A stretch of DNA of 64,000 nucleotides, from assembly GCA_963847445.1 (NCBI GenBank), contig CAWJZV010000030.1, forward strand, positions 224,001 through 288,000. Direction: 5' to 3'. The notes under the pieces were generated by a model that was given only the letters and a program-made list of their open reading frames with translations, had not been told where the DNA came from and ran no database searches. The first letter of the stretch is position 1. Each line of letters starts with the position of its first letter. This DNA comes from an uncultured delta proteobacterium. GTDB lineage: Bacteria; Desulfobacterota; Binatia; UBA9968. A program made the position numbers and the translations under genes. This document shows positions 30,251-50,135 of this stretch, piece after piece.

Positions 30251-30307
30251 ATTTAACTTTTGAGTTAACGGGCGCCGCAAGGCGTCCCGTTGAACGAATG
30301 GTTAGGC
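30251..30307 (-). repeat. attC site (last in array, before imuA)
   Basis: GCCTAAC...GTTAAAT with internal stem. Confidence 0.85.
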
Positions 30308-30375
30308 CTCACGTGCTGCACTCTTTGTTAACTCGATTTCTTCCTCGACCAGCACGAAAAAGATCATCGGGCAAT

Positions 30376-30864
30376 TTACTGGGGTGGCGGTTCGTCCGAC
30401 GCGAGAATCGCATTTAAAGTGGTTCCGCCGATCGCTGCGCAATCATGCTTCTTCGGATCCGACCACTTTATTGCCACACCTTGGACAACAGGGCGGACCA
30501 TTCGCCACGGCCAGAAGCCGAATCTTTGCGAGCCTGTGTAGTTAATGAGTGCATCCGCTCCGATTTTTCGCGCGATAACAGCAAATTTCGGAAGAATCTC
30601 TTTAACCCCGCCGTAAGTTCCTTTGCCAAGTTTTAATTTCCTTATTACTCTGTACTTGATATCGACTGATGGAATACCGGCAAAGAAGCATAATCCCAAT
30701 ACATCGGTAGTTGGCACAGTCTTTTCGGCTCCTACCTTGTCGGGCGCAATTTCGACTGAAGACTCAGTCGGTTCTGGGGATTCAGCAGAAGGCGTGACAT
30801 CTGCGGCAAAGGCATCGCTGAAGAAAAGCGCCAAGACAATGGCAGGTAATGCTGATGATTTCAT
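30376..30864 (-). CDS. Secreted hypothetical protein (cassette)
   Basis: Signal peptide; ARKIGADALIN. Confidence 0.7.
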   Translation of the reverse strand: MKSSALPAIVLALFFSDAFAADVTPSAESPEPTESSVEIAPDKVGAEKTVPTTDVLGLCFFAGIPSVDIKYRVIRKLKLGKGTYGGVKEILPKFAVIARKIGADALINYTGSQRFGFWPWRMVRPVVQGVAIKWSDPKKHDCAAIGGTTLNAILASDEPPPQ

Positions 30865-30961
30865 ATTTCACCGTAATAAAATATTCTTGAGACCTGATTG
30901 GCAAAGTTGCTACTTCTGCGCATACGTTACAACCGACACCCTACCGCCACTATTGTTAAAG

Positions 30962-31010
30962 GCCTAACGGTATGCCGCTGACCCGGAATCGGTTCGAGCG
31001 GCGGTTAGGC
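30962..31010 (-). repeat. attC site (49 bp)
   Basis: gcctaac...gccgct/agcggc...gttaggc. Confidence 0.8.
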
Positions 31011-31013
31011 CCT

Positions 31014-31277
31014 CTATCGGTAAACGTCTTTTCTGTGGCCAACTTTTACGACGTCAACCAGTAACTTCTCATCTTCGATGGAGTACAATATACGGTAGTT
31101 GCCCTCTCGCACCCTGTACCGGTCGAGGTGACCTGATAACTTTTCACAACCGAACGGTCTGGGATTTTCGCCTAAAGATTGAATCCGTAAGACAATTCGT
31201 TGTCGGTCTTTCTTTTGTCCAACGGTATCAATCTCTTTGCTTGCAGACGGCTTAATGACAATCTTATATCTTGCCAC
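31014..31277 (-). CDS. RelE/ParE family toxin
   Basis: L.ENPRP.GCEKL.G...YRVR.G.YRILY; VGHRKDVYR. Confidence 0.92.
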   Translation of the reverse strand: MARYKIVIKPSASKEIDTVGQKKDRQRIVLRIQSLGENPRPFGCEKLSGHLDRYRVREGNYRILYSIEDEKLLVDVVKVGHRKDVYR

Positions 31278-31494
31278 GCCGCCTCAACGACATCACCACG
31301 GTTTCAAAGTCGACGCTCTTTTCGTGAGCACGTTCTTCAAATGCAGCCAGATCTTCCGCATCCTCGGCCAACGCCAGTTTCACAGCATCATTCACCATGT
31401 CAGAAATGGAACGATCGGTAGCTGCTGCCTTGAGTCGAAGGGCTCGGTGGATCTCCGGCTCGAAATAAACGGTAGCTCGTTTGGGTAAACTCAT
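31264..31494 (-). CDS. CopG/RHH antitoxin
   Basis: KRATVYF...HRALRLKAA...SIS; LAEDAEDLAAFEER. Confidence 0.88.
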   Translation of the reverse strand: MSLPKRATVYFEPEIHRALRLKAAATDRSISDMVNDAVKLALAEDAEDLAAFEERAHEKSVDFETVVMSLRRRGKI

Positions 31495-31498
31495 ATGG

Positions 31499-31529
31499 GT
31501 ATAGTAACGTTACAACGTCATGACGTCAA
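31499..31529 (-). promoter_or_regulatory. TA cassette promoter with palindromic operators, probably leaderless
   Basis: TTGACG-17 nt-TACTAT a few nt before the ATG; palindromes acgtcatgacgt and gtaacgttac. Confidence 0.7.
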
Positions 31530-31542
31530 TGCGAGGCTAGGA

Positions 31543-31624
31543 GTCTAACGACAAGGCTGAGAAGCGATGGTCCGCGAGCGTTGCGAGCGGGGGCCGTACG
31601 TCTTTCTCAAGCCGCTGGTTAAGG
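31543..31624 (-). repeat. attC site
   Basis: gtctaac...ggctgagaag/ctttctcaagcc...gttaagg. Confidence 0.85.
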
Positions 31625-31637
31625 CGGCAAGTTGGTT

Positions 31638-31838
31638 TTATGTCAGTTCTTCAAGAAACTTGACGTCTTTCCGTAGCCACTGATTGACCATCTCGCCGAG
31701 ATCCTTGCCCTTCCGGCGAGCAATGCGCTCGAGTTTGCTCTGCAGTTTAGGGTCTAAATAAATGGGGAGCCGCAGTTCGGCGCCTTTCCGATAAAACTTT
31801 CCTCGAATGGCTTTCGAAAAATCGTATTCTCGTCTCAT
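31638..31838 (-). CDS. BrnA-like antitoxin
   Basis: MRREYDFSKAIRGKFY. Confidence 0.8.
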   Translation of the reverse strand: MRREYDFSKAIRGKFYRKGAELRLPIYLDPKLQSKLERIARRKGKDLGEMVNQWLRKDVKFLEELT

Positions 31839-31841
31839 ATT

Positions 31842-32141
31842 TCATTTCCTCTGATATTGCTTCTTTTCATTCTTTGTTGCTTTTCGCGCTGATATCAGCC
31901 GTACTCGCGCACTGTTTTCCGTTTCTTCATGATACGTATGGGAAAGAACCAACAACACACCAGTTTCATCCAACCCCAGGGTTATCCATCTCTCTTCCTC
32001 TTCACTATGTTGGTCATCAAACAGCGACAAGGCGTTCGGATCCAAGAACACTGTGGCTCCACGTTCAAACGTAACACGATGTTTTCTCGCATTTAGCCGA
32101 GCCTTCGCAGGGTCCCACTCAAACTGATATTGAAACGTCAC
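31842..32141 (-). CDS. BrnT family toxin
   Basis: FEWDPAKA..N..KH.VTF; EER...LG; RLISARKA. Confidence 0.92.
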   Translation of the reverse strand: MTFQYQFEWDPAKARLNARKHRVTFERGATVFLDPNALSLFDDQHSEEEERWITLGLDETGVLLVLSHTYHEETENSARVRLISARKATKNEKKQYQRK

Positions 32142-32203
32142 TTGGGGGATTATCTCATAAAACGCGAGACAAAAGCACGTTGGCAGCAGTCGCTATCAGG
32201 GAA

Positions 32204-32262
32204 CCCTAACGTTTTGGGTGAGCGGCGCGGTCTGCCGCGTCTTTCTCAACGCAGGGTTAGGC
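32204..32262 (-). repeat. attC site
   Basis: ccctaac...gttaggc with GC stem. Confidence 0.8.
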
Positions 32263-32980
32263 TGCTCCGTTGATTGCTGCGGGTCAAACTTCGATCTGCC
32301 CTAGCCACTGCCGCTCCACTTCCCGTGCGGCCCTCGCGAACGCGGCAGCGTGCTTTGGTTGTTGGACACAGGAAGAACACCACGTGCGCCGTTGAGAATG
32401 CAACCGTAGTCGAACCGGCAAGCTCTTCATTGAGACGACTGGCAAAAAACGGAATAAACCGCTCGCGGACCACACGAGGAAAATGCTGATAAACAAGTAT
32501 CGACTGACCGCCACCGTACATCGCCTGAAGTTCCTCCCAGTACACGTACTTCGAGGACCCGGCGGCGCCCAGCTTCGTACTCGGAACCTCGACTCCGTTG
32601 TCTGGATCCACAAAGACGAGGTCGGAGTTCCGGAGCACCTGCCGTGCCGCTTTGAAGTACTCAGCACGCGCTAGCCGATGGTCGCGCAGGACCGTGTCAA
32701 AATAGGACGCGCCCGGGACGAGCTCCCATTCGCGGGCCCGGGATACCGAGCGTTGCACCTCAGCATCCAAGAGGCGCTGCAGTTTGTCATAAAGCTCAGG
32801 ATCGTAGTGGCGCCAACGCCCGGGGTGTTTCAGATAGTTTCGAAGTTCGCCGTCACCAGCGCCGTCGTCGACCGTGAGAAACCAGCACACCCCGACGGCA
32901 AGACCCGATGCTCGTTGGAGGGTTCGCAACAATCCATACTTCCGAAAGTCGTTAACATCGCCAAAGTATTGGTTCTTCAT
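32246..32980 (-). CDS. Conserved hypothetical protein, possible methyltransferase fold (frameshift near the C-terminus)
   Basis: MKNQYFGDVNDFRKYGLL; DLVFVDPDNG. Confidence 0.6.
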   Translation of the reverse strand: MKNQYFGDVNDFRKYGLLRTLQRASGLAVGVCWFLTVDDGAGDGELRNYLKHPGRWRHYDPELYDKLQRLLDAEVQRSVSRAREWELVPGASYFDTVLRDHRLARAEYFKAARQVLRNSDLVFVDPDNGVEVPSTKLGAAGSSKYVYWEELQAMYGGGQSILVYQHFPRVVRERFIPFFASRLNEELAGSTTVAFSTAHVVFFLCPTTKARCRVREGRTGSGAAVARADRSLTRSNQRSSLTLR

Positions 32981-32999
32981 GCGCTCGTTGCAGTCTGGC

Positions 33000-33077
33000 G
33001 CCTAACGTGCAAGGCTTGAAGCGATGGCGCTCGCGCAAGCGAGCACGGCCGCACGCTCTCTCAAGCCGAAGTTAGGC
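33000..33077 (-). repeat. attC site
   Basis: gcctaac...gctcgcgcaagcgagc...gttaggc. Confidence 0.85.
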
Positions 33078-33310
33078 CGCACTTTTCGTGAAGGAGGCGA
33101 CAAGAACGCGCATTGGCTTGCCTCGGCGGCTTCGAACTTGCGGATGCGGTCAATCTCACGGGCGGTACCGGCAGTGAGGTACGACTCGTGACAGTTCGAG
33201 CAATGAATGATCGGAATGTCCTCGATCACAACGAGGCTATCGCCACGGCCAAGCTTTCGTTGATCTTCCTGCGACGGCCGCCTGTGGCTCCACAGAGTTC
33301 ACCACTTCAT
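33072..33310 (-). CDS. YgiT/MqsA-type zinc-finger antitoxin (frameshifted)
   Basis: VIEDIPIIHCSNCHESYL. Confidence 0.8.
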
Positions 33311-33645
33311 AATTCTTCAGCCTTCTCGCGATATACTGTGATCACGACCGCCTTGACCTCCCGAACCCAGTCTTCGAAAATCACGCCCACGGGTTCGCCA
33401 CCAACGCCTGTCCCGGTGAGAACGTATTTACGCTCTTTCGTTGCGCGGTCGAGCTGTCTTTCCACGATTCGGCCTTTGAGCACAACGTTCTCAATATCTT
33501 CGTCGAGGACATCATCCTCGCCCATTTCTTCGAGCGCGTGAATGGTAATGATGTACTCGCGCTCACGGAAAAGCGACCGAAATCGTTTCAGCTCCCGCTC
33601 AAACATCCGCAAGACGATTCTATGCCGAGTTAAGTCCATGCTCAA
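33307..33645 (-). CDS. DUF4258 toxin-like protein
   Basis: T.HA.EEM.ED, G.IVE, VITVY; ATGA overlap with the YgiT gene. Confidence 0.82.
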   Translation of the reverse strand: MSMDLTRHRIVLRMFERELKRFRSLFREREYIITIHALEEMGEDDVLDEDIENVVLKGRIVERQLDRATKERKYVLTGTGVGGEPVGVIFEDWVREVKAVVITVYREKAEEL

Positions 33646-33665
33646 CTGGGGAGTTTTGGCCGTGC

Positions 33666-33724
33666 GGCTAACGTTTTGGGTGAGAGGCGCGGGCGCCGCG
33701 GCCTTCTCAACCCGATGGTTAGAC
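33666..33724 (-). repeat. attC site
   Basis: ggctaac...gggtgagagg/ccttctcaaccc...gttagac. Confidence 0.85.
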
Positions 33725-33946
33725 GCCGCTTTCAGGCAGGTAACGGATCACTTCAAGCTCGGCAGTGCGTCCGCTCGCGCGAGCAAGGTATCGATCCGTG
33801 CCATAACGGGATCTTCAATGAGATACTCGCGCACGCTTCGCACTGCAAGACCGGCAGCTGCTTCAAAATCACGATGCGCTCCTCGACGTTGAATGGCAAA
33901 TCAGTGGTGATTGCACGCATGCGAGCACCGCAAACGTACAATTCAT
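33719..33946 (-). CDS. Second YgiT-type zinc-finger protein (frameshifted)
   Basis: C..CG; TDLPF; [13 protein letters not shown]. Confidence 0.75.
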
Positions 33947-34009
33947 GACGTCCACCTCCTTCGCGTCTTCAGATCCATTTCCCACTCGATCGGCGCTGGG
34001 GTAAGTATG

Positions 34010-34230
34010 CACGACATTCTTGTAGGATTCGCCAGTGCAGATGATGCCGTCGTGCGACCAAACCGGAGTGCCCATCCACTTCCACTCCTCGACGAACGTC
34101 CGGGTCTGCTTCCTTGATGAAGCTTGCGCATTATGCCGAGGGTTTTCCCGCGCCAATCCCCGAGTTCGGCGATTCTTTTCGAGATGAGCTCCGCTGCCGA
34201 CTGGCCTTGGCTCGCGCCCGACTTTTTCAT
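34010..34230 (-). pseudogene. Truncated duplicate of the DUF1801 cassette at 46842-47261
   Basis: Near-identical DNA over ~300 bp including the leader; similarity ends after ETYK-like GESYK. Confidence 0.85.
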
Positions 34231-34306
34231 GTTCTCATCCTAGAAGTTCCAGATATATTTCATTGCAAGACAGCGGAGGATATTCAATAGACTTCAGGAC
34301 GACGCC

Positions 34307-34365
34307 GCATAACGATCACGATGAGCGGCGTGCGTCAACATGCCCGCTTCATCGTCCAGGTAGGG
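34307..34365 (-). repeat. attC site with mutated R''
   Basis: gcataac...cgatgagcgg/ccgcttcatcg...ggtaggg. Confidence 0.75.
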
Positions 34366-34380
34366 CTTCGTCGCGGGGAC

Positions 34381-35139
34381 TCATACGAGCTGGTATATCG
34401 CCTGCACGGGCCAGTGATCCGACAGTGCGAGGTCTCCAGCGTAGCACTGCGGAACGCTTGCAGCGATCGCGCGCGCGTACTTGTTCGCGACGATGAGGTC
34501 GATCGCCTCGGTGATCGTCTGCTCCCCGGGTTGAGCATTCGCCGTCGGATAGCACTGAAAGGTGGGCGGGCTCTGCATTCCCAGAGCGGCGAAGCAGCTC
34601 ACAAATCCCGCCTGCATGAGGATCCACTGGGGATGCCAGGCGTCGTTCATGTCCCCCATAAAAAACGCCGGCTCGCCTTCACGCACGCGTCGCGTGAGCT
34701 CCTCGGCAATTCGCTTGAGCTGCCGCACCCTCGGCGACACACCTGTTTCGATTTCATCGCTGTGCCGGGGACTCGTGAGATGAGCGGTTGCGACGAAAAT
34801 CGCCTTCTGAGAAGACTTGAGCCGAAGGCGGGCCCAAAACATGCGTCGCTCCGGTTCGACGTGACCGACTTCCTCGGCGCCGTGCCCGATCTCCTCCAGG
34901 ACCGCCTCGTTCCAATAAATGTTGCTCTCGTTTGTCCAGCCCGAAAACGGATCATGGACCCGGGCATACCCGCTCAGAACTCGGTCTAGGAACTCCTGCG
35001 TCGGACGCTGCAGTTCCTGCAAGCAAAGTACGTCGGGAGTAAACAACGTGAGAAATCTCTCAAGGGCCGGTGCGCGCGCCGGCCAACGTTCGGTCAGCCA
35101 AATGTTGCAGGTTATGATCGAGAGGCGGGTCGGGACCAT
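34381..35139 (-). CDS. Endonuclease/exonuclease/phosphatase family
   Basis: TCNIW, DVLCLQE, GDMN, IDLI, SDHWPV. Confidence 0.9.
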   Translation of the reverse strand: MVPTRLSIITCNIWLTERWPARAPALERFLTLFTPDVLCLQELQRPTQEFLDRVLSGYARVHDPFSGWTNESNIYWNEAVLEEIGHGAEEVGHVEPERRMFWARLRLKSSQKAIFVATAHLTSPRHSDEIETGVSPRVRQLKRIAEELTRRVREGEPAFFMGDMNDAWHPQWILMQAGFVSCFAALGMQSPPTFQCYPTANAQPGEQTITEAIDLIVANKYARAIAASVPQCYAGDLALSDHWPVQAIYQLV

Positions 35140-35164
35140 TTTTTTCAGCGATGCTTCCTTGAAC

Positions 35165-35223
35165 CCCTAACGTATCGCTCAGCCGACGCTCTTTAGCGAT
35201 CGGTCTGAAGCGCCAAGTTAGAC
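35165..35223 (-). repeat. attC site
   Basis: ccctaac...gttagac. Confidence 0.85.
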
Positions 35224-35260
35224 ATCTCCGTTTTGCGAAAAACCATTCCGTGGAAAATTT

Positions 35261-36064
35261 CTACCCTGCCGGTACTACCCCGGCACTGCCCAAGCCTTTG
35301 CACGCAAGTGTAATCGATCCATCAGGGCGGTTACCAAGAATGTCTGTGCGTCATCGACTCCTTCGATACCTGTCGAGCGATCCTCGGAGAGAGTACTGAT
35401 ATAAAGTTTAGGCGGTCGCCTGGCTATTTGACAGGCGGCTACCAGAAATCGTCAAAGGAACTAAACTCCATAGGAATGAACCAGGGCCCTTGTTTCAACA
35501 TTCGCAAAACCAGTGGCGGTCCACAGCTCTGAAAGCGCGCTTGCTGATCCCCATAACGCCTATCCCCAGATCGTTTAACTCCCGGGTCAACTACAACGAC
35601 CACATCGCAGAATCTTTCCAATAACTCCATGCCTCCACTGTTGTCCCATACACAAGTTGCAACAGTTCCTCGCTTTTTTGTGACGCGCCTCATTTCTCTT
35701 GCTGCCGTGTGCGCATCCGAGACAAACTGGATCATCAATGATCGAATACGCAGCAGTCGAAAGAGCCATTGTCATAGGGAAGTTTCTGAGCATCCCCGAT
35801 TTCAAAAGCAATATGCGGATGTGAATTCTGTGCACGAGCATATTCTAAGTAACCAACTGAAGGGTCAATGCCGACAACCGTTGAGGCTTTTGTTGTATCT
35901 GCGATGGTGAATGTAAGCGAACCTGTACCACAGCCCACATCTAATACCCGATCCCCTTCTTTGATACCGTCTACAAATTCGATGAAGAGAGGAGCAAGGG
36001 TTTTACTCCAGCTTCCCATTCCAGCCTGATACTTATCAGGATCCGTGTGTAGGTTGGGTTCCAT
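35261..36064 (-). CDS. Class I SAM-dependent methyltransferase (frameshifted)
   Basis: VLDVGCGTG, GDAQKLPY...SFD, REMRRV. Confidence 0.88.
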
Positions 36065-36076
36065 AGTCGCCTCGAC

Positions 36077-36149
36077 GTCTAACGACTGTGCTCACCCGCA
36101 GCCGCGTGGTGGCAACGGTGCGGCTGTCGGGTGCAGCGGAGGGTTAGAC
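36077..36149 (-). repeat. attC site
   Basis: gtctaac...acccgcagccgc/gcggctgtcgggt...gttagac. Confidence 0.88.
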
Positions 36150-36155
36150 GGTTCA

Positions 36156-37541
36156 TCACAGGTCCGGATCTGGATCTCGGGTAACGGGCTTTAGGCCGAT
36201 GTGGTCGGCCATTTCAGCGCCCGTAAAGTTCTCCGTGAAACTTTCCGCTGTTTCCGGGAGCATCGTCGCGTTCCACGTGTTCCACTCGCCAACGAGTCGA
36301 TCGTATATGTCGCGGTGGCGGTCCCTGAGGTTGGCGCGTTCGAGCGGATCGGCGACCACATTGAACAAGAACGTGTTGTCGAGAATCTTGAGGTATTTCC
36401 AGTCTCCAATGCGAGCCGCTCGCTGCCACAACGACTTGTAACGCCAGAACAGCCTACGCTCCACGATCGGCGCCCCTTGGACGAGATGAGGTAGAAGGTT
36501 CATCCCGTCTGGCGGATAGCCCGGATCGGCGTCGACGCTCGCGGCGGCTAGCAAGGTGGGAAGCCAGTCCATGTTGACCGTCACCTGCTCGCTGACGCGC
36601 CCGGCGGCAATGCGCGCCGGCCATGACATGATCGCGGGAATCCTTAGACCACCTTCAAGTAACTCCATTTTCTTGCCGGTGAACGGCCAGGTGTCGGAGA
36701 AGCGCTCGCCCCCGTTGTCGCTGGTGAAAATCACGATCGTGTCCCGGTTGATGCCGTTCTCCTCCAGGGCGGCAAGTACCCGGCCGATTTGCATGTCCAT
36801 CGCCACAATGATTCGACGGTAGGTCTCCTGCGACCCGCCGTCCCAGTGGATCAGATCGCGGCCACGCAGGCGCTCCGCTTCTGCCTGATCCCCCGGCGCT
36901 TCCCATGGCCAATGCGGGGCGTTGAAGTGCAGGCTGAGCAGGAACGGCCGTCCGGCCTGCGCATAGTCCCGGATGACAGTGACAGCCCGATCGCCGAACA
37001 GGTCCGTACTATACCCTTCTTGCGAAATCGGCATGTCCTCATCCCAGAAGTCGGGCGCCCCCCTACGCCCCGTGTGGCGGTAGTAATCCACAGTTCCACC
37101 GCGGTAACCGTAGAAGTGGTCGTAGCCGCTCTTGAGCGGACCGAAATCTGGCAAACCGCCCAGATGCCACTTGCCAATCAACGTGGTGCCGTAACCACCC
37201 TTCCGCAGCAGCGAGGGGAGTGTTGGGTGCTCGGGTGGCAGGCCGACGCCGGGCGGGCTGTTGGCCGACAGCGGCTCCTCCAGACCGACGGGCAGTCGAA
37301 GTTGGTAACGACCGGTGATGATCGCCACGCGCGACCCCGTGCATACGGGCGAGCTCGCATAGCCCTGCGTGAATCGCACGCCTTGCGCAGCCATCCGATC
37401 GATGTTCGGCGTGACCAGATCACGACGACCGTAGCACGACACGTCTGCGTAACCCATGTCGTCAGCAATGATGAACACGATGTTCGGCCGTCGGGCTTGC
37501 GGCTGCACGCGACGCGTGATTTCGTCTGTCATCGGTCCCAT
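36156..37541 (-). CDS. Arylsulfatase/sulfatase family
   Basis: PNIVFIIADDMG, CTGSR, GKWHLG, APHWP, SDNG. Confidence 0.92.
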   Translation of the reverse strand: MGPMTDEITRRVQPQARRPNIVFIIADDMGYADVSCYGRRDLVTPNIDRMAAQGVRFTQGYASSPVCTGSRVAIITGRYQLRLPVGLEEPLSANSPPGVGLPPEHPTLPSLLRKGGYGTTLIGKWHLGGLPDFGPLKSGYDHFYGYRGGTVDYYRHTGRRGAPDFWDEDMPISQEGYSTDLFGDRAVTVIRDYAQAGRPFLLSLHFNAPHWPWEAPGDQAEAERLRGRDLIHWDGGSQETYRRIIVAMDMQIGRVLAALEENGINRDTIVIFTSDNGGERFSDTWPFTGKKMELLEGGLRIPAIMSWPARIAAGRVSEQVTVNMDWLPTLLAAASVDADPGYPPDGMNLLPHLVQGAPIVERRLFWRYKSLWQRAARIGDWKYLKILDNTFLFNVVADPLERANLRDRHRDIYDRLVGEWNTWNATMLPETAESFTENFTGAEMADHIGLKPVTRDPDPDL

Positions 37542-37590
37542 GGTGATCCTTTACTTGGACTAGTGGTGGTCCTCGCGGTCCCGGGTTGCC

Positions 37591-37651
37591 GTCTAACGTT
37601 CACGGGTAAGAAGCGCGGTCTGCCGCGGCGGTCTCAACCCATTGGTTAGCC
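37591..37651 (-). repeat. attC site
   Basis: gtctaac...gttagcc. Confidence 0.8.
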
Positions 37652-37652
37652 A

Positions 37653-37946
37653 TTAGTTGCGAGATTGCCACCGTCGTGGGTGGCGTCGTCCGTGCATACA
37701 GGCCACCACTATGACCTGATCGTCAATAATTCGGTAGAAAAGGCTGTACGGGAAACGACGCAAATTCACACGACGTGTCTGGCGGTAAACAACAGGAAAG
37801 CGTTCAGGATATGTCACCAAAGATTCAATGACGGTACTCACCGCTGCAAGAAACTCGTCACCAAGACCCGCTCGTTGATCCTCATACCATCGGTAGGCAT
37901 CTTCAACATCCGCGGCGGCAGCAGGCCGGAAGATCGGTGGCTTCAC
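37653..37946 (-). CDS. RelE/ParE family toxin
   Basis: A..WYE.Q..GLG.EF; RFPY..FY; H.RR.P..W. Confidence 0.9.
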   Translation of the reverse strand: MKPPIFRPAAAADVEDAYRWYEDQRAGLGDEFLAAVSTVIESLVTYPERFPVVYRQTRRVNLRRFPYSLFYRIIDDQVIVVACMHGRRHPRRWQSRN

Positions 37947-38164
37947 CTAGACCGAGAGCGAATCTGTTGCAGGACCTGGTCCCAAGGAATGCCCTCAGGT
38001 CCCGAGCGTTCGAGATCGTCAAGTCGCCGATCAAGTTCCTCGCGCTGCGCGTTGGTCAGCGGAACAGTTTCCGGCGTCTCGTTGAGGCTGTCCCATAGTT
38101 CCTCAATCAGACGCAGACGCTCTTCAGGACTCATCTCGCCGATGTTTAGCGCGGACTTGCTCAT
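37943..38164 (-). CDS. Putative addiction module antitoxin
   Basis: ERLRLIEELWDSL; ELDRRL; W. Confidence 0.88.
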   Translation of the reverse strand: MSKSALNIGEMSPEERLRLIEELWDSLNETPETVPLTNAQREELDRRLDDLERSGPEGIPWDQVLQQIRSRSR

Positions 38165-38272: not shown

Positions 38273-38275
38273 GAT

Positions 38276-41946: not shown

Positions 41947-42608
41947 GTCATTGTGCCCTTGGCGCCGGAGTACAACATGGGTGGCTTTCTCCGACGCAAC
42001 GAACTGAACGCATTCGTATCCCAGAGCGCGCACGTCAATCCCCTCGAACAGTCGCTCTCCCCGCCCAGCAGGACCGGCGAGATAGCGACGTGCAGCTCAT
42101 CGATGAGGCCCGTACGAAGATATTGCTGGATAGTGTTAGGTCCGCCGCCAATGCGCACATCCATTCCGTTGGCTGCGTCGCGCGCCCGGTCAAGCGCCTC
42201 GTGAATACCGCCCGTGACGAAGTAGAATGTCGTTCCGCCTTCCATCTGGATGGGCGGGCGCGCGTGATGAGTCAAGATGAAAGTTGGAACGTGATAGGGT
42301 GGGTTGTCCCCCCACCAGCCTTTCCAGTTCATGTCGGGCCAGGAACCGCGAATCGGTCCGAACATGTTTCTTCCGAGAATCCAGGCGCCAACATTCTTGA
42401 AGCCCCGCGCAGCGAAGTCGTCATCGATCCCCGTTGTGCCACCGTCGGCGCCAAATAGGGTCCGTTGGAGCGTGCGTGTCGGGACTAACCACTGGTGCAA
42501 ATCTGTCCCGCCCACGCCGAGCGGATTCCTGATGTCCTGATTCGGACCAGCTCCGTATCCGTCAAGCGAGATGGTAAAGCCCTCAACTCGGACGCGTGTC
42601 ATTTTCAT
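41941..42608 (-). CDS. Dihydrofolate reductase/RibD C-terminal family (frameshift near the end)
   Basis: ISLDGY.AGP, ILGRNMF, GWWGDNPPYH, GGG, LIDEL. Confidence 0.88.
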
Positions 42609-42626
42609 GCCTTCCTTTCGATTGAC

Positions 42627-42728
42627 GCCTAACGATCTGGCGATAACCCGCGCCGATTACAACCACGATATCGCCGCAGCACGCGTCGTCGATTCTGCGG
42701 CAGCGCCGGGTTCATCGCCGTGTTATGC
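42627..42728 (-). repeat. attC site (~102 bp)
   Basis: gcctaac...ggcgataacccg/cgggttcatcgcc...gttatgc. Confidence 0.85.
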
Positions 42729-42757
42729 CGTCTTGTGGCGCGGTCGTTTTCGGTGTC

Positions 42758-43231
42758 TTACTGATGGGTGCGTTCCCAAGCCTTTTGCTCTTCGCGGCCT
42801 TGCCAGATGATTTCACGTGAAAATTCTCCCGTTCCGATCCAGAAAAGGGACGGCTTTAGCTGCGCGTATTCGAGAAAATACTTCAACGCCTCGGCCGCTA
42901 ATTCTTCCGAGACGAACAACTCGCGGGGCCAGCGTTCAAGAGCCTGGCCACCGAGGTTGATTTCAACACTTGGGGAAGAAAAATCATTTCTGTTCACGAG
43001 GAAATGACCAAGCGAATGGTCGTTCTCAAAACACTGGACATTATAACCTTCGCTGTCATGCCAACTGATATGAGCGCGAGGAAATTCGCCATGCGCAGGA
43101 CAGATGTATGCTTCATCCCAAGGAGCGGCGGATCGCACACGCGTTAGAACATCGGATGCTGTTGGGGTGAAAACCTCGGCTTCACCTGAGATCAATGAGA
43201 GCCGAAAAATGAACTGACGATTCTCGCTCAT
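42758..43231 (-). CDS. Imm1-like immunity protein
   Basis: LGGQ...P..LFVS...A.EAL.YF......P...W pattern. Confidence 0.6.
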   Translation of the reverse strand: MSENRQFIFRLSLISGEAEVFTPTASDVLTRVRSAAPWDEAYICPAHGEFPRAHISWHDSEGYNVQCFENDHSLGHFLVNRNDFSSPSVEINLGGQALERWPRELFVSEELAAEALKYFLEYAQLKPSLFWIGTGEFSREIIWQGREEQKAWERTHQ

Positions 43232-43243
43232 GGTTCTTATGAC

Positions 43244-43355
43244 GTCTAACGTATGGCTCAGTGGCCGCCGGCAATACGCAACTAAGGCGTGTTACGCCGC
43301 TTACTTCTCACAATCGCTGCGCTTCCGGCGGTCCATCTGAAGCCGGATGTTATCC
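43244..43355 (-). repeat. attC site (~112 bp)
   Basis: gtctaac...ggctcagtggccgccgg/ccggcggtccatctgaagcc...gttatcc. Confidence 0.85.
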
Positions 43356-43381
43356 GATCTTGCGGGGGTCGATGCAAGACG

Positions 43382-43606
43382 TTAAGCGACGGATCTAACA
43401 GTCACGAGATCGCTTTCTTGAACCGGTCTCACGTCATCGACGTTGAGTGTGACCAGCGCCTGAGTTTTGCCGGATGCGGTTACAAACTCAACCTCCAACC
43501 CATCGGGCTCGTACACTTCCACGATAGCTCCCAAATCTCCGGCGCGAAGGCCATGCTGGGGCAGGTTTCGGTCAAGAACTACTGTATCGAGAAGTTTGTA
43601 CTTCAT
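43382..43606 (-). CDS. DUF4926 protein
   Basis: LDTVVL..NLP.HGL.AGD.GAIV..Y...G.EVEF. Confidence 0.88.
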   Translation of the reverse strand: MKYKLLDTVVLDRNLPQHGLRAGDLGAIVEVYEPDGLEVEFVTASGKTQALVTLNVDDVRPVQESDLVTVRSVA

Positions 43607-43710
43607 TCCGTTTCTCCCGGGAAAGCAGTTACGAACTGAGGAACATTACTTTCAAATCGTACAATCCAAACGGTCAACACCCTAGCGGATCTCCCTGAGG
43701 GACCATTTTG
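43603..43710 (-). pseudogene. C-terminal remnant of a DUF6883-like toxin
   Basis: GPSGRSARVLTVWIV...PQFVTAFPG; ATGA-coupled to DUF4926; 5' part missing. Confidence 0.6.
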
Positions 43711-43711
43711 A

Positions 43712-44497
43712 TCAAGCATCAACCGTAATTTCTCCGCGCAAGTACTCGACAGCTTGTCCTGCGATCAAAACGCGATCACCGCGCAACGCGCAACGAAGGT
43801 CGCCGCCGCGAGCTGAAAGCTGCTTTGCAACCAGCTCGGAGCGGCCAAGGCGCGCCGCCCAATACGGCACGAGCGTGCAATTCGCAGACCCGGTTACAGG
43901 ATCCTCGGGGATTCCTTGGCGCGGCGCGAAAAACCGATAAACGTAGTCCACCGCTCCACCGGGCGCGGAGATGATGACCGCAAAGGCATCGAGAGAAGCG
44001 ATGCGCCCGAAATCCGGGCGAAAGTCGTGTATTTGTGACTCCGACTCGTAGATCGCAAGCAAGTCGCGCGCTCGATATAACTCTCTGGGGCGAATGCCCA
44101 AGGCCGCAACAACGGTATCTTCTATCTCCACTGGTTTCCCGGGACGGGAAGGAAAATCCATGCTGAGAAGATCGCCATCCCGAGTAACCGTGAGATTTCC
44201 GCTGCGCGTGCTGAATGTAAGGCGTTTCGCCGAGGGCAAGGTATGCCGGAAGAGCACGTCTGCGGTCGCCAAGGTTGCATGTCCACACAGATCGACCTCC
44301 ACCGTTGGTGTGAACCACCGTAGCGGCATGATCTCCCCATGCGGGATCACAAATGCGGTTTCGGCGAGATTGTTCTCCGCGGCGATCGCCCTGAGTGCGT
44401 CGTCAGGCAGCCAGGCATCCAGCAGCACCACTGCCGCGGGATTCCCGCCGAACATTCGACCCGTAAAGGCATCCATCTGGTAGAGCGGTAGCTTCAT
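43712..44497 (-). CDS. PhzF family isomerase
   Basis: DAFT...GGNPAAV, ETAF, EVDLCGHATLA, EDPVTGSA. Confidence 0.93.
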   Translation of the reverse strand: MKLPLYQMDAFTGRMFGGNPAAVVLLDAWLPDDALRAIAAENNLAETAFVIPHGEIMPLRWFTPTVEVDLCGHATLATADVLFRHTLPSAKRLTFSTRSGNLTVTRDGDLLSMDFPSRPGKPVEIEDTVVAALGIRPRELYRARDLLAIYESESQIHDFRPDFGRIASLDAFAVIISAPGGAVDYVYRFFAPRQGIPEDPVTGSANCTLVPYWAARLGRSELVAKQLSARGGDLRCALRGDRVLIAGQAVEYLRGEITVDA

Positions 44498-44514
44498 TGC
44501 GGTCGTTTTTTGCC

Positions 44515-44602
44515 AGCTAAAGGTTGAGCTGAGCGCCGCGGCTGCAGCGGTATGGGCTTGGCACTTTATCGTCCACGCGTGCGCTCCCGCGAGGTGTTAA
44601 GG
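44515..44602 (-). repeat. attC site (R' mutated)
   Basis: agctaaa...gagcgc/gcgctc...gttaagg. Confidence 0.65.
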
Positions 44603-44668
44603 CGGCACGAATTCGCATACGAAGCGCAACACGGCGAAGTCACTGTGGCGGCCCTATGGAAGGAATTG

Positions 44669-45221
<553 letters not shown>

Positions 45222-45250
45222 TACGGTAGCAGGGACTGCCGTAATCGGCG

Positions 45251-45307
45251 GCCTAACGTTGTGCCGCTGAGTGATCTTCTCAGATTCGCTCAAGCGGCGG
45301 GTTATCT
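45251..45307 (-). repeat. attC site
   Basis: gcctaac...gccgctgag/ctcaagcggc...gttatct. Confidence 0.85.
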
Positions 45308-45319
45308 CAATGGGAACAT

Positions 45320-45677
45320 TCACGCCAGGACGTTCAAGGTAGCCGCTGCTCTCCGGAAGCGGCTTGTCGAAGGTCCAAATTGCGCACCTTGTGAGTAACG
45401 TCGAAGCGAGAAGATGAGCATCCACCCAACCGATACCACGTCCGTACAAACGCCGCGCGTCTATGAAGCTTATGACTTCTTCGTGTTCGAGCAAATGCGC
45501 TTCGGGCAAGGCTTTCAGCATGGTGAGAATCTCGCCTCGCTTCTGCAGCGTTCCGCAAGCCAATTCGCCGATAACAAACGGATGGCAAAGGACTTGTTCG
45601 TCAAGTAGCAGACCTCTTAGACGATCATTTCCCGCTCGGAGATGCTCGATCCAGACCGAGGTGTCGACGAGAATCAT
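45320..45677 (-). CDS. vapC: VapC PIN toxin
   Basis: ILVDTSVWI, GELACG, G.VDAHLLAS, WT.D. Confidence 0.9.
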
Positions 45678-45874
45678 GCAAAGCGGCGAGGTCGACGTCT
45701 CCGAATACTGCGAAGCCGTCTCTCAGTACCTCCGAGATTGGCCAAACGGCGGGCACTCTCTTTGGCGATGAGCGCCTCAAGCCCCAAGCGTACCAAGGAA
45801 GTCTTTTCCTTGACACCAGTCAGCTTGGCGGCGTCCTGTAGGAGAGAATCATCAATGTTGAGTGTTGTTCTCAT
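45674..45874 (-). CDS. vapB: VapB antitoxin
   Basis: MRTTLNIDD.LL; KT.LV..GL.ALI. Confidence 0.9.
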   Translation of the reverse strand: MRTTLNIDDSLLQDAAKLTGVKEKTSLVRLGLEALIAKESARRLANLGGTERRLRSIRRRRPRRFA

Positions 45875-45920
45875 ATGCAATTAGGATGCCCAAATGATGC
45901 ATACGGGTCAAGTGTCGGAA

Positions 45921-45971
45921 AGATAACGCGATGCCGCTGAGCCGGAATCGGCTCGAAGCGGCGGGTTAGGC
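45921..45971 (-). repeat. attC site (51 bp)
   Basis: agataac...gccgctgagccggaatcggctcgaagcggc...gttaggc. Confidence 0.82.
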
Positions 45972-46699
45972 CGTTTGCTGTTCGAGAACATTGAATGCTT
46001 TCACAACGCTTGCGAGTGGCGGAAGCAACTCTTCGTCAGGAGGATCGTCTTTGTGCTTCACGGCTTTCCACCGTTCATTCGCCTCATCCGCGGCTGCAGC
46101 GAACGCCGCCAGTGCCTGGTCGGACGTTGCACGTGCATACTCAGAAAGTGTAGCGGCGATCTCGCCGAGCGTTGCCTTCGCGCGAACCTTGAGGCCTATA
46201 TCTTTCGTGGCGAGACGGAAAGCCTCTTTCTCAAGCTCCTTGGCCACTCTGCCGAAAATGCCTGAGCGGTGCGACCCGAATGTTGAGGGTGCCCGATCAA
46301 GTGTATCCTCGGCGTAGATTCTTCGCGTATTTCTCTGGATGACCTCGGCCGCCGCGATGTATTTCTCTGGGCTGCCACCGTAAGGATCTTCAAGATTGAT
46401 GTATGATGTGCGAGTTATCGGCGGGATCCTAAGATTTTCCGCTGCGAAAGGACGAAATATTACTACCACGTCGACGGACGCGAGATTAACAGACTGGATG
46501 TCGACAACCGAATGATTTGAAATATCGATTCCGAACGTTCGCATTGCACTGATAGCATTTCTCGCTGCAGGCGCCCCCCCTCCGCTTCTGTCCCGGCACT
46601 GCTGATCTGATGATTCGCACCAAAAATCCTGCGCGCGAATCCTGCGGCCATGGGGCTGCGGCACGTGTTTCCTGAGCAGACAAACAGAAGTCGAGTCAT
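45966..46699 (-). CDS. Low-molecular-weight phosphatase/ArsC-like domain plus C-terminal helical domain (frameshifted)
   Basis: LFVCSGNTCRSPMA, SAG, EDPYG. Confidence 0.8.
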
Positions 46700-46721
46700 T
46701 CTGATTTTCAGATTTCTATCG

Positions 46722-46781
46722 GCCTAACGCCTGAATTAAGCTGACCCGCGAAGCGGGTTCGGATTGAATGAATTGTTATGC
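46722..46781 (-). repeat. attC site
   Basis: gcctaac...acccgcgaagcgggt...gttatgc. Confidence 0.85.
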
Positions 46782-46841
46782 GGCAATTGCCTGGGTTTCA
46801 CAGAACTTGCCCGATGTCGGACCTGTTCAGGGCGGAATCCC

Positions 46842-47261
46842 TCAGGACTTCGCTTTCTTCGAAGGTTTCGACTTGCCAGAACTGTTGAGGGCGACCGCTT
46901 GGCGAACGAGCGCCTTGAAGGCGGACTCGTCAACTTCTTCTCCTTCGTGGATGTCGATCGCGCGGCGTACGTTTCCGTCGAGACTCGAGTTGAAGAGACG
47001 GGCCGGATCCTTCAGAGACGCGCCCTTGGCGAAGGTGAGCTTCACGACCTTCTTGTAGGATTCGCCGGTGCAGATGATGCCGTCGTGCGACCAGACCGGA
47101 GTGCCCATCCACTTCCACTCCTCGACGACGTCCGGGTCTGCTTCCTTGATGAGCTTGCGCATTCTGCCGAGGGTTTCCCCGCGCCAGTCCCCGAGTTCGG
47201 CGATTCTTTTCGAGATGAGCTCCGATGCCGACTGGCCTTGGCTCGCGCCCGACTTTTTCAT
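46842..47261 (-). CDS. DUF1801 protein
   Basis: [28 protein letters not shown]. Confidence 0.9.
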
Positions 47262-47340
47262 GTTCTCATCCTAGAAGTTCCAGATATATTTCATTTGCAA
47301 GACAGTGGAGGATAGTCATGTAAGACTTTAGAACGACGTC

Positions 47341-47401
47341 GCATAACGCCGCCCATCACGCGCGTGCGTCTTCGCACGTCGCGTGGATGGGCTTGTTGGG
47401 G
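47341..47401 (-). repeat. attC site
   Basis: gcataac...gcccatcacgcgcgtgcg/cgcacgtcgcgtggatgggc...gttgggg. Confidence 0.88.
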
Positions 47402-47404
47402 TCA

Positions 47405-48242
47405 GCTCGATCCACGTTGAGTCACTCATGTTCTGTCGCTCTGACCACCAACGCCGGCAGTCGTCCGCTCTTTGGAAGATGCAGGATCCTAAACTTGAAC
47501 TCTGAGAATTCCGCGAGGGATCATTGGTCGTCTCCACGTCCGTCACTGCAGAATCACCACATACGAAAGCTGGTCCATGCTGACAAAGTTGTGAGTATGT
47601 AGGATCGAAATAGCAGAAGGCCGTGCTGCGCAGGTCTGGCTCTTTAGCAAGCATCATGTTCTCACCGGATTGAAACGTCCGTCGCGCTGCCTCTGGGAAT
47701 TGAGAAGGCGAGAAGCTTGTTGCCAACACTCAATCGGCTGCTCGCCGTATTGGCGATCTCCCTTGCGAAGGCATGCATGGCCGGTTTCGGGCCAATTCCA
47801 CGCTTCAAGAGGCGACGGAAGCGTCTAGTGCTTTCCGCGATCAGCAGGGAGCGATTGGCCGATGACCCGGCTCGCGTATAGCTCATTTGGCCTCAGCCGG
47901 CGTTCGAATACATGAAGAGTTTCACCTGGCGATGAACGTCGCCCTCCTTCAAGATCATTCATGTTCGTCACTAGCAGAAAGTGCGGCTGTAATGGCTCTG
48001 TGGTCGTTTGGCGCCAGCCCGCTATTAGGAATGTGAGTTCTAGTGGAAATGGCGCTCCTTTGATGGCTCGAGCTCCGTCGTTCTCGCAAGTACCTGTGCA
48101 GCAACGTACGGACTCCGGCAGTTGCTTTCTGCCAGCCGTACTGCAATCCACTCGTGAGTCGAGGCGCCTTCGGGTTCCGAAAAACCCGTATAGGCTATTC
48201 CCCAGACACCACATACCGAGACTAACTTGCACGTATGATCAT
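47405..48242 (-). pseudogene. Fragmented unknown cassette gene
   Basis: Cassette-sized interval with only broken ORFs. Confidence 0.35.
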
Positions 48243-48248
48243 CAGAGG

Positions 48249-48290
48249 CTCTAACCTTTACGTGGACCGCTCACGAACGTGAGCTGTCTA
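48249..48290 (-). repeat. Degenerate attC remnant
   Basis: ctctaac plus hairpin gctcacgaacgtgagc; no R''. Confidence 0.4.
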
Positions 48291-48363
48291 TCCGAGACAA
48301 CGAGTACGGTTCCCTGCGTGAGAGCGGCGAGAATTTGCGTCATGTGGCACCTAGCCCTTGACG

Positions 48364-48444
48364 GCCTAACAAATCAGGCTGAGAGGGCGAGACCAGCGAG
48401 CGCAGCGACCGGGTCGAAGATCCTTCTCAAGCCGATTGTTAGGC
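48364..48444 (-). repeat. attC site
   Basis: gcctaacaaatcaggctgagag/cttctcaagccgattgttaggc. Confidence 0.88.
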
Positions 48445-48459
48445 GTATTACGGAAGCCG

Positions 48460-49186
48460 AATGATGGTTTCATTGTATCTCTGCATAGCTCGCATGGAGA
48501 TCGGCAACTTGCAGCCAGACGAATAAGCTCCTGCTTGACTGATTCAAATGCTGGATGTGGTAATCGGGGATCTAGGACCACTTCATCAAGCACTGCTTCG
48601 TGATCGAAATCTACATTCACAACGCCCCCGGCGCCCATGTCGCCTTCGACGTCGTCAATTAGCAGACGTACCTCTTTTTCGTGCTCGAATTCGCGTCTCT
48701 TGATGCAACAGAATACTTGAGCAAAGTTTTGCGACTGGCCGCCAAAGCTCAGGTCCATAAAGGAAGTGGTGGCTAAAAGCTGTTCATGATCAACCCCCGC
48801 TCCAGATATCTTACAACGCCAATAAAGTATTTTAGGTCGCGGAATTTATCAGCGCGATTGTATATGGCCGCAAACAATTTTCTAATGGTCGTTGCGTCTC
48901 GGAAACCATCCTTGTTTGGACTATAGATCCTCCACACGGCAGGTGTCACGATTCATCGTCCAGCACTGACCATACCAACTTGAGGCGATGGTGCAATGCT
49001 AACCAATTTTCCAGTTGGGGTCTTTGCCTTGCACTTGAGAAAGAAATTTTCAAACGGATGTCCTACTTGGACGGATGGACGAGCCCGTTTTTGTTGCTTC
49101 GGAGAAGGTCCTTGAACCGACGGATCGGGAACACCCGATAGAATGCGCGCGTCCGAATCGTTTACATCTATGCCATTCTCTTCCAT
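48460..49186 (-). CDS. DUF2971-like protein (many frameshifts)
   Basis: PFENF; WRIYSPNK; KRREFEHEKEVRL; EVVLDPR. Confidence 0.7.
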
Positions 49187-49215
49187 ACGACTTCGTTCGA
49201 CGGCGATGCAGATAC

Positions 49216-49287
49216 GCCTAACGTTTGAGCTAAGCCGCCGGAGGAGGCCGCAGGGCGGTACCGGCCGGCTTGAGCGAGGGGTTAGAA
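49216..49287 (-). repeat. attC site (first in array)
   Basis: gcctaac...agccgccgg/ccggccggct...gttagaa; gttagaagac complements the head site gtcttctaac (50007-50016). Confidence 0.9.
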
Positions 49288-50004
49288 GACATTTTTGGTC
49301 AGCCAGTCTGCACCTTGGATCAATTCGTCGACTTGCTCACGTGTTGGCTCCTAACATCCTTCTTGTGTGAGCACAGATTTCGAAGATCAGCGAGGAAACG
49401 AAATCTTTCGCCAAGCTGTGTCAATAACGGAAGCCGCCTTCAGCGGGTCATTCAGATCGGCCGATCGTTGGATTTTTCTAAACTTTCACGCCTTTGGAGT
49501 CCGCTACTTTCTGCAGGTGACCCTCAATGACGACACCGACTAGCGCACCCGCTGCGCGGAGGCTCACGTAGGAAGCTGGATGCGACAACTAGCTCACTAT
49601 CGTGGAGTACTCTCTGGCTCGTCTGGTGTTGTGGTGCACAGGATCGACGCGCTCGGCAATTGCCTTGATGATGGCGGGCTCAACGAAGTAGTATATGAGG
49701 GTTCTCTCGTCCTGTCGAAATCCGGGTGCTGGAACTTGTGCGGGTCGAGCTCTTGAAGAAGTCATGAACCAGAAGGTTCCGTAGCCGATACGCCTTCGCT
49801 TGGGATCGATCTGCGTAGTACGCCTTGAACTCCGCAAGACGGTCCGGTGCAAGCGATGCAACGGCCTTCAGTGCCTTTGTGTACCAGCATGGTATCCTAT
49901 TGGAACGCTTGGCTACGCTTCTTCTGGAACGCGACGGCAAGCTTAGCGCCGCTGTCGTACAGGTCATCGGTCTCTTTGCGAATGAGATCTCGTTTTGCGT
50001 ACAT
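49282..50004 (-). CDS. HEPN-like protein (frameshifted), first cassette
   Basis: C-terminus pieced across frames: WRKIS/FLADLRNLCSHKKD/EPTREQVDELIQG, with an RxxxxH motif. Confidence 0.6.
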
Positions 50005-50009
50005 ACGTC

Positions 50010-50135
50010 TTCTAACTATTAAGTGAGCGATTTAGACTGCGCCAGTATTGGCCGCCTATTCCAAACAACTCCGTTGATGATAAACGACAACATTGCGAAC
50101 TGTATCGCTTACTTCCTGCATGAAAGTCAAGATTT
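50010..50135 (-). promoter_or_regulatory. attI-like array head with possible upstream promoter
   Basis: GTTAGAA core with no complementary arm; TTGACT about 115 bp upstream in an AT-rich tract. Confidence 0.45.

Follow-up and report, generated by a model that had tools for sequence, protein, structure and literature searches.

An array of 24 attC sites with an integrase remnant and a putative attI between lexA and imuA of an uncultured Binatia genome

The stretch of DNA analysed here (hereafter the window) comprises 64,000 nucleotides of an uncultured delta proteobacterium assigned to the Binatia (GenBank assembly GCA_963847445.1, contig CAWJZV010000030.1, positions 224,001 to 288,000) and carries, between the genes lexA and imuA, an integron cassette array of about 20 kb (positions 30251–50016 of the window) without an integron integrase gene (intI). 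With a covariance model built from the window we located 24 attC recombination sites in this array, which span 30251–49287 and share the minus strand. By definition the array is an attC cluster without an integron integrase (CALIN). It is very probably a chromosomal integron of the co-oriented ("inverted") type that lost its intI, since the 3' end of that gene is still in place together with an attI region aligning with the attI that lies beside an intact intI in a related locus, here called L015.

The integrase remnant and the attI region

The remnant consists of approximately the last 30 codons of intI on the minus strand (50195–50285), with one frame break; it reads ..RDVSTT / LIYTHVLNRGGRGVQSPADRLLKS and ends at a stop codon at 50192–50194. 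When the window was searched by tblastn with IntI1 of plasmid R100, the best match fell at 50266–50204 on the minus strand (LIYTHVLNRGGRGVQSPADRL, E = 0.002). The remnant matches positions 296–315 of 315 of the integron integrase family TIGR02249 (E = 3.9e-5), scoring 21–23 bits where the cut-off is 265. A hidden Markov model (HMM) of 56 full-length IntI proteins, biased towards the C-terminus because its members were found through that C-terminus, matches it at positions 324–346 of 351 (segment 50195–50347, E = 8e-13). Over all six-frame segments of at least 15 amino acids in the window, this stub and a second one near 25.6 kb were alone below E = 0.3, and both lie on the minus strand like the cassettes. 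Several hundred proteins, many of which their sources name integron integrase, have C-termini that are 91–100% identical to the remnant. The intact intI that belongs to a complete integron is not found next to the array, where only the stub stands; about 950 bp of the gene are gone between the remnant and position 50330, and a four-helix-bundle gene with its repeats occupies the place where most of intI would lie.

The attI region follows the stop codon of the remnant (50014–50194, minus strand), with the crossover G|TT at 50016/50015 as judged from the alignment with L015. From 50285 to 50011 the window aligns with L015 from the RDVSTT of intI through attI, and the identity runs through ..TCACTTAATAGTTAGA to end at the GTTAGA crossover (..CACTTAATAGTTAGA), beyond which the first cassettes differ. 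This region has several conserved blocks, a TTGACT box that is likewise conserved, and the direct repeat ATA(A/G)GCGGCCAA, which can be read twice. Its homology to L015 places an attI at the integrase-proximal end of the array, putative as a recombination site. The TTGACT box could be the -35 element of a cassette promoter: the box and a spacer of 17–18 nt are conserved between the window and L015, and a promoter consensus scan calls none there. In L015 the order is lexA, intI (5646–6776), attI, a few cassettes and imuA, the intI being intact except for a single frame shift within roughly the last 16 codons. The comparison shows that the integron of the window was once complete at this same place.

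An earlier note, made from the letters of the window and its reading frames, had read the array as a CALIN served in trans or as a platform that lost intI. With 24 sites and no intI reading frame the array is indeed a CALIN, and the loss of intI is borne out by the 3' remnant upstream of a conserved attI and by the intact gene of L015 at the same place. That note had also reported no tyrosine recombinase reading frame in the 64 kb; none of 103 non-overlapping open reading frames (ORFs) of at least 55 amino acids in the window matches PF00589 (tyrosine recombinase), although the two 3'-terminal remnants had been overlooked. Equally missed were the co-orientation of intI with the cassettes, the presence of imuA and imuB at the far end of the array and the recurrence of this arrangement in relatives.

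Two other accounts of the missing integrase bear on the same evidence. If no integrase had ever been present, the cassettes would have been inserted in trans at a secondary site (GWTMW-like) between lexA and imuA; the target reconstructed here, GTTAA, fits that consensus. Insertion of this kind is one of the CALIN origins listed by Cury et al. 2016 (PMC4889954). However, the first cassette has the 3' end of intI directly upstream of it, and the 180 nt between the stub and that cassette are homologous to the attI beside the intact intI of L015, and we regard this origin as extremely improbable. Scarcely more credible is an intact intI present in the organism and lost or collapsed by an assembly error. 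The window does hold many single-base frame breaks in conserved genes, but the missing piece would have to measure about 950 bp instead of a single base, the window contains no Ns, and 3'-terminal or partial remnants are found in six separate metagenome-assembled genome (MAG) records (the loci L002, L014, L021, L027, L032 and L033 described below) and twice in the window.

The attC sites and the cassettes

No Rfam family matched the window at gathering scores, and a covariance model was therefore built from the sites of the window. As a MAFFT alignment of 12 sites of mixed length was unusable for structure, a first model (R1) was seeded on 8 clear sites of similar build, and the model used here (R2) was rebuilt from the 16 best minus-strand matches and run with filters off over the 64 kb on both strands. 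The core boxes of attC follow the consensus RYYYAAC (R'') and GTTRRRY (R'). A strict search for RYYYAAC...GTTRRRY with full R''/R' complementarity returned only 5 and 4 in-array sites, because sites in situ are hybrids of two cassettes, and a fold-based scan and then the covariance models were used. In the whole 64 kb R2 gave 20 minus-strand matches below E = 0.01, every one of them between 30251 and 49287, and mirror matches on the plus strand always scored below those on the minus strand. The top match outside the array (24698–24767, E = 0.012) proved to be a true attC as well, belonging to a second small array. In a control on 50 kb of plasmid R100, the same model found attC(aadA1) on the aadA1 strand with 63.9 bits (E = 7e-14); apart from the opposite-strand echo of that site (20.2 bits), the next-best match reached 12.2 bits.

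Counted from attI, and with R2 scores given in bits in brackets, the sites lie on the minus strand at 49216–49287 (57.7), 48364–48444 (42.1), 47341–47401 (third site, weak), 46722–46781 (56.1), 45921–45971 (20.2), 45251–45307 (21.6), 44515–44603 (seventh, weak), 43244–43355 (41.2; the longest, 112 nt), 42627–42728 (42.0), 41885–41946 (tenth, weak), 41208–41274 (61.9) and 39937–40000 (54.0). The second half of the array continues with 38913–38969 (24.1), 38222–38272 (29.5), 37591–37651 (57.4), 36077–36149 (55.1), 35165–35223 (43.0), 34307–34365 (eighteenth, weak), 33666–33724 (62.8), 33000–33077 (32.2), 32204–32262 (53.0), 31543–31625 (43.2), 30962–31010 (35.9; the shortest, 49 nt) and 30251–30307 (51.8; R' = GTTAAAT), which forms the distal end. 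Each of the four weak sites has a defect in one R box, and all four are in register with cassette boundaries. The third scores 14.8 bits at 47345–47397 (14.9 with R1) and shows no pairing between R'' and the start of its own cassette; the seventh (8.3 bits) has degenerate R boxes; the tenth (9.8 bits) has GATGTGC as R', while its R'' pairs 7/7 with its own cassette start; and the R'' of the eighteenth (15.3 bits) is one A short. A 25th site was sought by eye at 48248–48330, 43638–43708 and 35390–35450, none of which reached 8 bits with R2.

The fold of the sites is supported by covariation. Among the 20 strong sites, 8 of 10 L''/L' pairs are changed on both sides, none of 500 shuffles reaches the observed score, and 88–90% of the L''/L' cells are paired as against 21–43% for slid partners. 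Fitting the alignment to the model works in favour of pairing, but the slid and shuffled controls still separate clearly. The TAAC/GTTA pairs of the R''/R' boxes are invariant in 19–20 of these 20 sites. Extra bases in the L'' arm could be read directly at 30251–30307, 33666–33724 and 41208–41274, and the difference in R2 score between the strands agrees with them. The first of these shows the layout R'', 5 nt, L'' with two extra bases, loop, L', 6 nt and R', the same as in attC(aadA1), and since this classical layout is found on the minus strand the array is to be read in the direction from 50016 to 30251. Nearly all gene-sized ORFs in the interval 30.2–50.0 kb are on the minus strand, each followed by a short imperfect palindrome (..YTAAC to GTTR..). 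The sites are thus confirmed as genuine attC and the array is real.

The integron integrase cuts between G and TT of R' (G|TT), so that, at any junction, what follows GTT is part of the next cassette. In a pairing test, the 7 nt before the AAC of each R'' were compared with the start of the same cassette and with the R' found in situ. Pairing with the own end held at 121 of 168 positions, a value reached in none of 20,000 permutations, whereas pairing in situ held at 84 of 168, which is at chance (p = 0.88); unrelated pairs average 3.68 of 7 per site. Sixteen of the 24 cassettes pair better with their own start and 3 tie. The first bases of a cassette match its own attC end and not the abutting site because an integron integrase, cutting at G|TT, inserted the cassettes as circles, one after another.

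Most of what the earlier note had said of the array stands. Its limits coincide exactly with the distal attC end (30251) and the attI crossover (50016); the attC-like sites hold under the covariance model, window-derived as it is, strongly in 20 of 24 cases and weakly in the other 4; their lengths range from 49 to 112 nt as given, although they number 24 and not about 25; and their diversity is real, with a mean pairwise identity of 58% and a maximum of 83%. The three cassettes quoted for the pairing of ends were the best ones, and the effect is general. The proposal that the sites suggest many donors is not supported: the GC content of the array (0.56) is close to that of the rest of the window (0.576), and cassettes are shared with the arrays of related Binatia-type MAGs, which argues for a pool internal to the lineage.

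The cassettes, 581–1514 bp long, contain four recognisable toxin-antitoxin pairs, small enzymes and unknowns, as is typical of chromosomal arrays; a DUF4258 cassette may be a fifth toxin-antitoxin. Six cassette-length stretches are common to the window and L002, with 92–99% DNA identity as against 89.9% for the flanking imuA-imuB, and the shared order differs (c4, c7, c8, c10, c14 in the window; c7, c10, c8, c4, c14 in L002). Shared cassettes are likewise more identical than the flanks in L004, L006 and L024, and in L003 one of the three (91.9%) lies above the flank identity (88.3%). These comparisons point to cassette movement after the lineages split and do not distinguish whether it came before or after the loss of intI. 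The array could accordingly still be a working reservoir, served in trans by an integrase elsewhere in the genome or on a mobile element. Besides the excess of cassette over flank identity and the reordering, this is favoured by the 20 of 24 attC that still score well, by the close relative L003, which keeps an intact intI after higA, and by the possible mobilisation of CALIN cassettes by integrases elsewhere that is raised by Cury et al. 2016 (PMC4889954). However, both copies of intI in the window are remnants and the reshuffling could predate the loss, and although we take service in trans as a real possibility, we lean against it.

Several observations weigh against reading the array as a canonical integron that lost its integrase. 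The remnant is short, most of its score coming from 23 codons. Four of the 24 attC sites are weak (8–15 bits) and several R boxes have one-base defects. The attC model comes from this same array, although 8 of its 24 sites entered no training set of either model and the R100 control is independent. For five of the 24 cassettes, pairing in situ is better than pairing with the own start. PhzF and DUF4926 genes, which are unrelated (43244–44514), share a single attC, so that at least one cassette boundary is not canonical; in L002 the PhzF cassette, 99% identical, is closed by an attC of its own, and its match to the window breaks off just past the stop codon of PhzF, which argues that the PhzF attC was lost in the window by an event unlike those of the integrase. 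Finally, conserved genes of the window (the end of lexA, imuB, an aminotransferase at 61316–62456 and DUF5131) carry single-base frame breaks, and one-base defects of attC sites or cassette genes are consequently inseparable from sequencing errors.

Integrons in the lexA-imuA-imuB cluster of relatives

Comparable loci were collected by a scan of species-representative genomes with the ImuA-like protein of the window (29498–30094), which yielded 32 loci, the best of them 96% identical and none from an identical genome, all on MAG contigs labelled Candidatus Binatia, 'delta proteobacterium' or similar. They were compared by tblastn with the window proteins, with the IntI HMM and with R2. A recurring one-strand order was observed: a VWA-domain gene, lexA, imuA, imuB, higA, intI and attC sites, with a four-helix-bundle gene standing sometimes between lexA and imuA and usually between imuB and higA. 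Integrons thus occur at one or both of two places, between lexA and imuA (site A) and after imuB/higA (site B). MAG contigs can be chimeric, and the pattern recurs in many separate MAG records. R2 gave 96 matches in the relatives, of which 90 are distinct and lie without exception on the imuA strand, the other 6 being mirror matches; the IntI matches counted at both sites are on the imuA strand as well.

Site A is filled with attC sites in 9 of 30 informative loci (L002–L007, L011, L015 and L024), in addition to the window. The other 21 are empty, with lexA about 100–620 nt from imuA. In an ImuA tree of 30 rows (L024, L026 and L027 being left out for frame breaks or partial sequence), all filled loci fall into one clade of 14 rows (support 99/95) that also holds 4 empty loci; the filling of site A requires a minimum of two changes on this tree, and the site-A integron may have been gained once. 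The stretch from the last attC of the window to the start of imuA (30095–30250, minus strand, TTAAATAAAGCTCC...) is conserved from G|TT to imuA in all 9 filled loci aligned, while the last attC differs, and empty loci have unrelated GTTCAA-repeat spacers in its place. From its conservation this distal flank is taken to be the fixed right half of the original recombination site. We also noted intI fragments in mid-array, upstream of imuA, in the two closest relatives, L002 (2587–2865) and L003 (5821–6420, where the fragment has the opposite orientation); the L002 fragment has further attC sites upstream of it. These fragments suggest further rearrangements or merged arrays.

Site B is the position where most relatives carry their integron, with IntI matches in 15 of the 32 loci. 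The protein is full length and in one piece in L003, L007, L008, L011 and L013, full length in pieces in L018 and L020, cut by the contig end in L006 and L010, and a stub or partial in L002, L014, L021, L027, L032 and L033. In ten loci the contig ends too early (L004, L009, L016, L017, L019, L022, L023, L025, L026, L031), and seven informative loci have no IntI match (L005, L012, L015, L024, L028, L029, L030), of which L015, L024, L029 and L030 nevertheless keep attC matches. On TIGR02249 the integrases of L003, L007, L011 and L015 score 468, 467, 471 and 445 bits respectively, all above the cut-off.

The second stub of the window, THVLNRGGRGVCSPADNQLS* (25602–25661, minus strand), stands at this position, downstream of imuB, a four-helix-bundle gene, higA, tcmP and DUF5131. 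It matches the IntI HMM at positions 327–343 of 351 (E = 5e-7, segment 25602–25778) and corresponds to the second tblastn match of IntI1 of R100 (25661–25578), with the same motif as the first. The codons of the two stubs differ mostly at third positions, which indicates two separately evolving genes and not a recent copy. The second stub is what is left of the site-B integron of the same genome, also dead and with few cassettes. The attC of its first cassette (24698–24767, minus strand) scores 19.6 bits with R2 and 22.4 with R1, and the start of this cassette, GTTAGCCGTCAC (25439–25428), pairs 12/12 with GTGACGGCTAAC (24772–24761). This small degenerate integron spans 22100–25780 on the minus strand, with an attI-like crossover GTT at 25439–25437, a first cassette ORF at 24769–25236 and weaker attC-like sites at 22608–22678 and 22149–22220. 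A pair of TcmP-like (TIGR04474) and DUF5131 genes (25927–26974, minus strand) is found just upstream of intI in several relatives (L008, L018, L021, L027), and in L007 the DUF5131 gene (6073–6786) is at the lexA-side integron instead; such a distribution hints at exchange between the two integron sites.

SOS genes, known integron types and other features

Read on the minus strand, the window presents lexA with a probable LexA operator in its promoter, a four-helix-bundle gene with GTTCAA repeats, the intI remnant, attI, the 24 cassettes with an attC at the end of each, imuA and imuB. As we reconstruct it, a complete co-oriented integron stood at site A and received cassettes singly as circles; intI was then deleted by the loss of some 950 bp, leaving its 3' end, attI and the cassettes, after which change would come only through an integrase from elsewhere or ordinary recombination.

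The lexA gene (50964–51551, minus strand) encodes LexA_DNA_bind and Peptidase_S24 domains. Between TTGACT and TATATA before it lies TACTGAAAATATTTTCAGTA (51562–51581), the only exact TACTG-N10-CAGTA in the 64 kb; in 13 related loci the same palindrome, with at most 1 mismatch, stands some 30 nt ahead of lexA, and LexA probably binds it. LexA-type operators were found neither before imuA, before intI nor in attI of the window (within 2 mismatches), nor before imuA or intI of the relatives (within 1 mismatch). As the genes from lexA to imuB are co-directional and the sole operator precedes lexA, damage-inducible read-through into the array is probable, and transcription from the promoter-like box of attI may add to it. 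At site B the gaps between higA and intI are only 3–8 nt in L003, L011 and L020, which makes co-transcription from the lexA promoter plausible. These features would fit an integron built into the SOS mutagenesis cluster, in which mutagenesis by error-prone DNA synthesis, cassette shuffling and cassette expression are induced together from the lexA promoter, provided that the genes form one or two damage-inducible transcription units, and in which intI deletions that spare the 3' end and attI freeze the array and keep it expressed. We offer this scheme tentatively and consider it, as a whole, rather unlikely; if true, the usual control, a LexA box at a divergent intI promoter, would give way to lexA's own promoter.

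Among known systems, the Vibrio superintegron type resembles the array by its more than 19 attC on a chromosome, its many toxin-antitoxin cassettes and its link to the SOS response. Sedentary chromosomal integrons are expected to have homogeneous attC sites. Here the sites are heterogeneous and intI is lost, whereas their number passes the threshold for large arrays (more than 19 attC) of PMC4889954. Unlike Vibrio integrons with a LexA-repressed intI, the present one has no LexA box at an intI promoter and stands in line with lexA itself. Integrons with an inverted integrase (Treponema type) exist according to that paper, and share with ours an intI co-oriented with the cassettes and an attI after the intI 3' end; here, however, the phylum is different (Binatia-type MAGs) and the genes lexA, imuA and imuB surround the integron.

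A CALIN is defined by Cury et al. 2016 (PMC4889954) as two or more attC without intI nearby, with intI loss as one proposed origin; there, 6.6% of CALINs have more than 10 sites and pseudogenes lie near 15 of 279. The array is a CALIN by its 24 attC without an intI gene, and its origin is demonstrable, the stub and attI being in place. The stub falls far below the 50% profile coverage that the pseudogene screen of that study demands, so that such a screen would miss it, and the 5% reported may understate the share of CALINs explained by integrase loss. The array is thus a clear case of a large CALIN whose origin, through the intI stub and the conserved attI, can be demonstrated.

The study of Cambray et al. 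2011 (PMC3108266) describes integrase inactivation as pervasive (43–46% predicted inactive) and LexA boxes at intI promoters, and its text contains none of the words 'operon', 'imuA', 'dnaE2' or 'inverted'. With integrons inactivated in this way the array shares its maintenance after integrase loss; it differs in that the deletion is near-complete, recurs in relatives and always leaves the 3' end, and does not consist of point mutations. In the full-text literature, subscription journals aside, we found no integron reported in Binatia or Binatota and no link between integrons and imuA/imuB, the co-mentions being general SOS or genome papers as judged by title or the start of the abstract. The array is a known kind of object; to our knowledge, its nesting in the lexA-imuAB cluster across many genomes is undescribed. 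This recurring link in a little-studied phylum offers a natural system in which to ask if integron activity and SOS mutagenesis share their transcripts.

The genes at the distal end are an imuA-like gene (29498–30094, minus strand; RecA fold, PF00154), which scores 28.5 bits on NF033429 ImuA, below the cut-off of 150, and after it an imuB-like gene with an IMS domain (27870–29622, minus strand). At the other end, one extra base near the end of lexA causes it to read through into the four-helix-bundle gene, whereas lexA of relatives stops at ..GLLRKF*. That gene (50469–50885, minus strand; TIGR02436, 109 bits; PF05635) lies within 50330–50960 among inverted arrays of 9-bp GTTCAA/TTGAAC repeats. 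Units of such GTTCAAnnn/nnnTTGAAC inverted arrays are present at 50330–50960, 27400–27870, 51620–51715 and 25700–25790; two of them have a four-helix-bundle gene (TIGR02436, PF05635, '23S rRNA intervening sequence protein') inside, and another, upstream of lexA, is a hairpin with no gene in it. Transcripts could be terminated or processed at the repeat hairpins. We had considered the GTTCAA repeats as the agent that cut intI and abandoned this idea, the same DUF5131 and repeat stretch being native just upstream of intI in L008, L018, L021 and L027. In relatives the four-helix-bundle gene follows imuB in 12 loci and lexA in 3, with fragments in 2, and because it keeps to the same two positions it looks like a resident of the SOS cluster and not a random insertion.

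Frame shifts were located at 50940–50975, 29107–29189, 61852–61917, 25927–25960, 40028–41265, 33869–34230 and 35735–35740, several cassettes being also affected. They suggest assembly indel errors, and apparent pseudogenes are not to be trusted. A reading of decay from the LexA-four-helix-bundle fusion, the split imuB and the broken AKR, DUF1801 and methyltransferase genes was rejected, since core genes are split too and the defect of lexA is one extra base.

Two further features were noted. A 25-bp palindrome, GTCTAACGCGCCGGGCGCGTTAGAC (51716–51740), occupies the 3' end of the VWA gene and precedes the repeat hairpin found upstream of lexA; its ends resemble the R''/R' boxes of attC, it is called terminator-like and it scores 15.9 bits with R2 on both strands, and it may be a relic attC or only a terminator. 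Adjacent genes at 10701–12981 (minus strand) encode TIR proteins, one with TIR and FGE-sulfatase domains and one with a TIR effector domain of the CAP12/Pycsar type, for which a role in anti-phage defence is possible.

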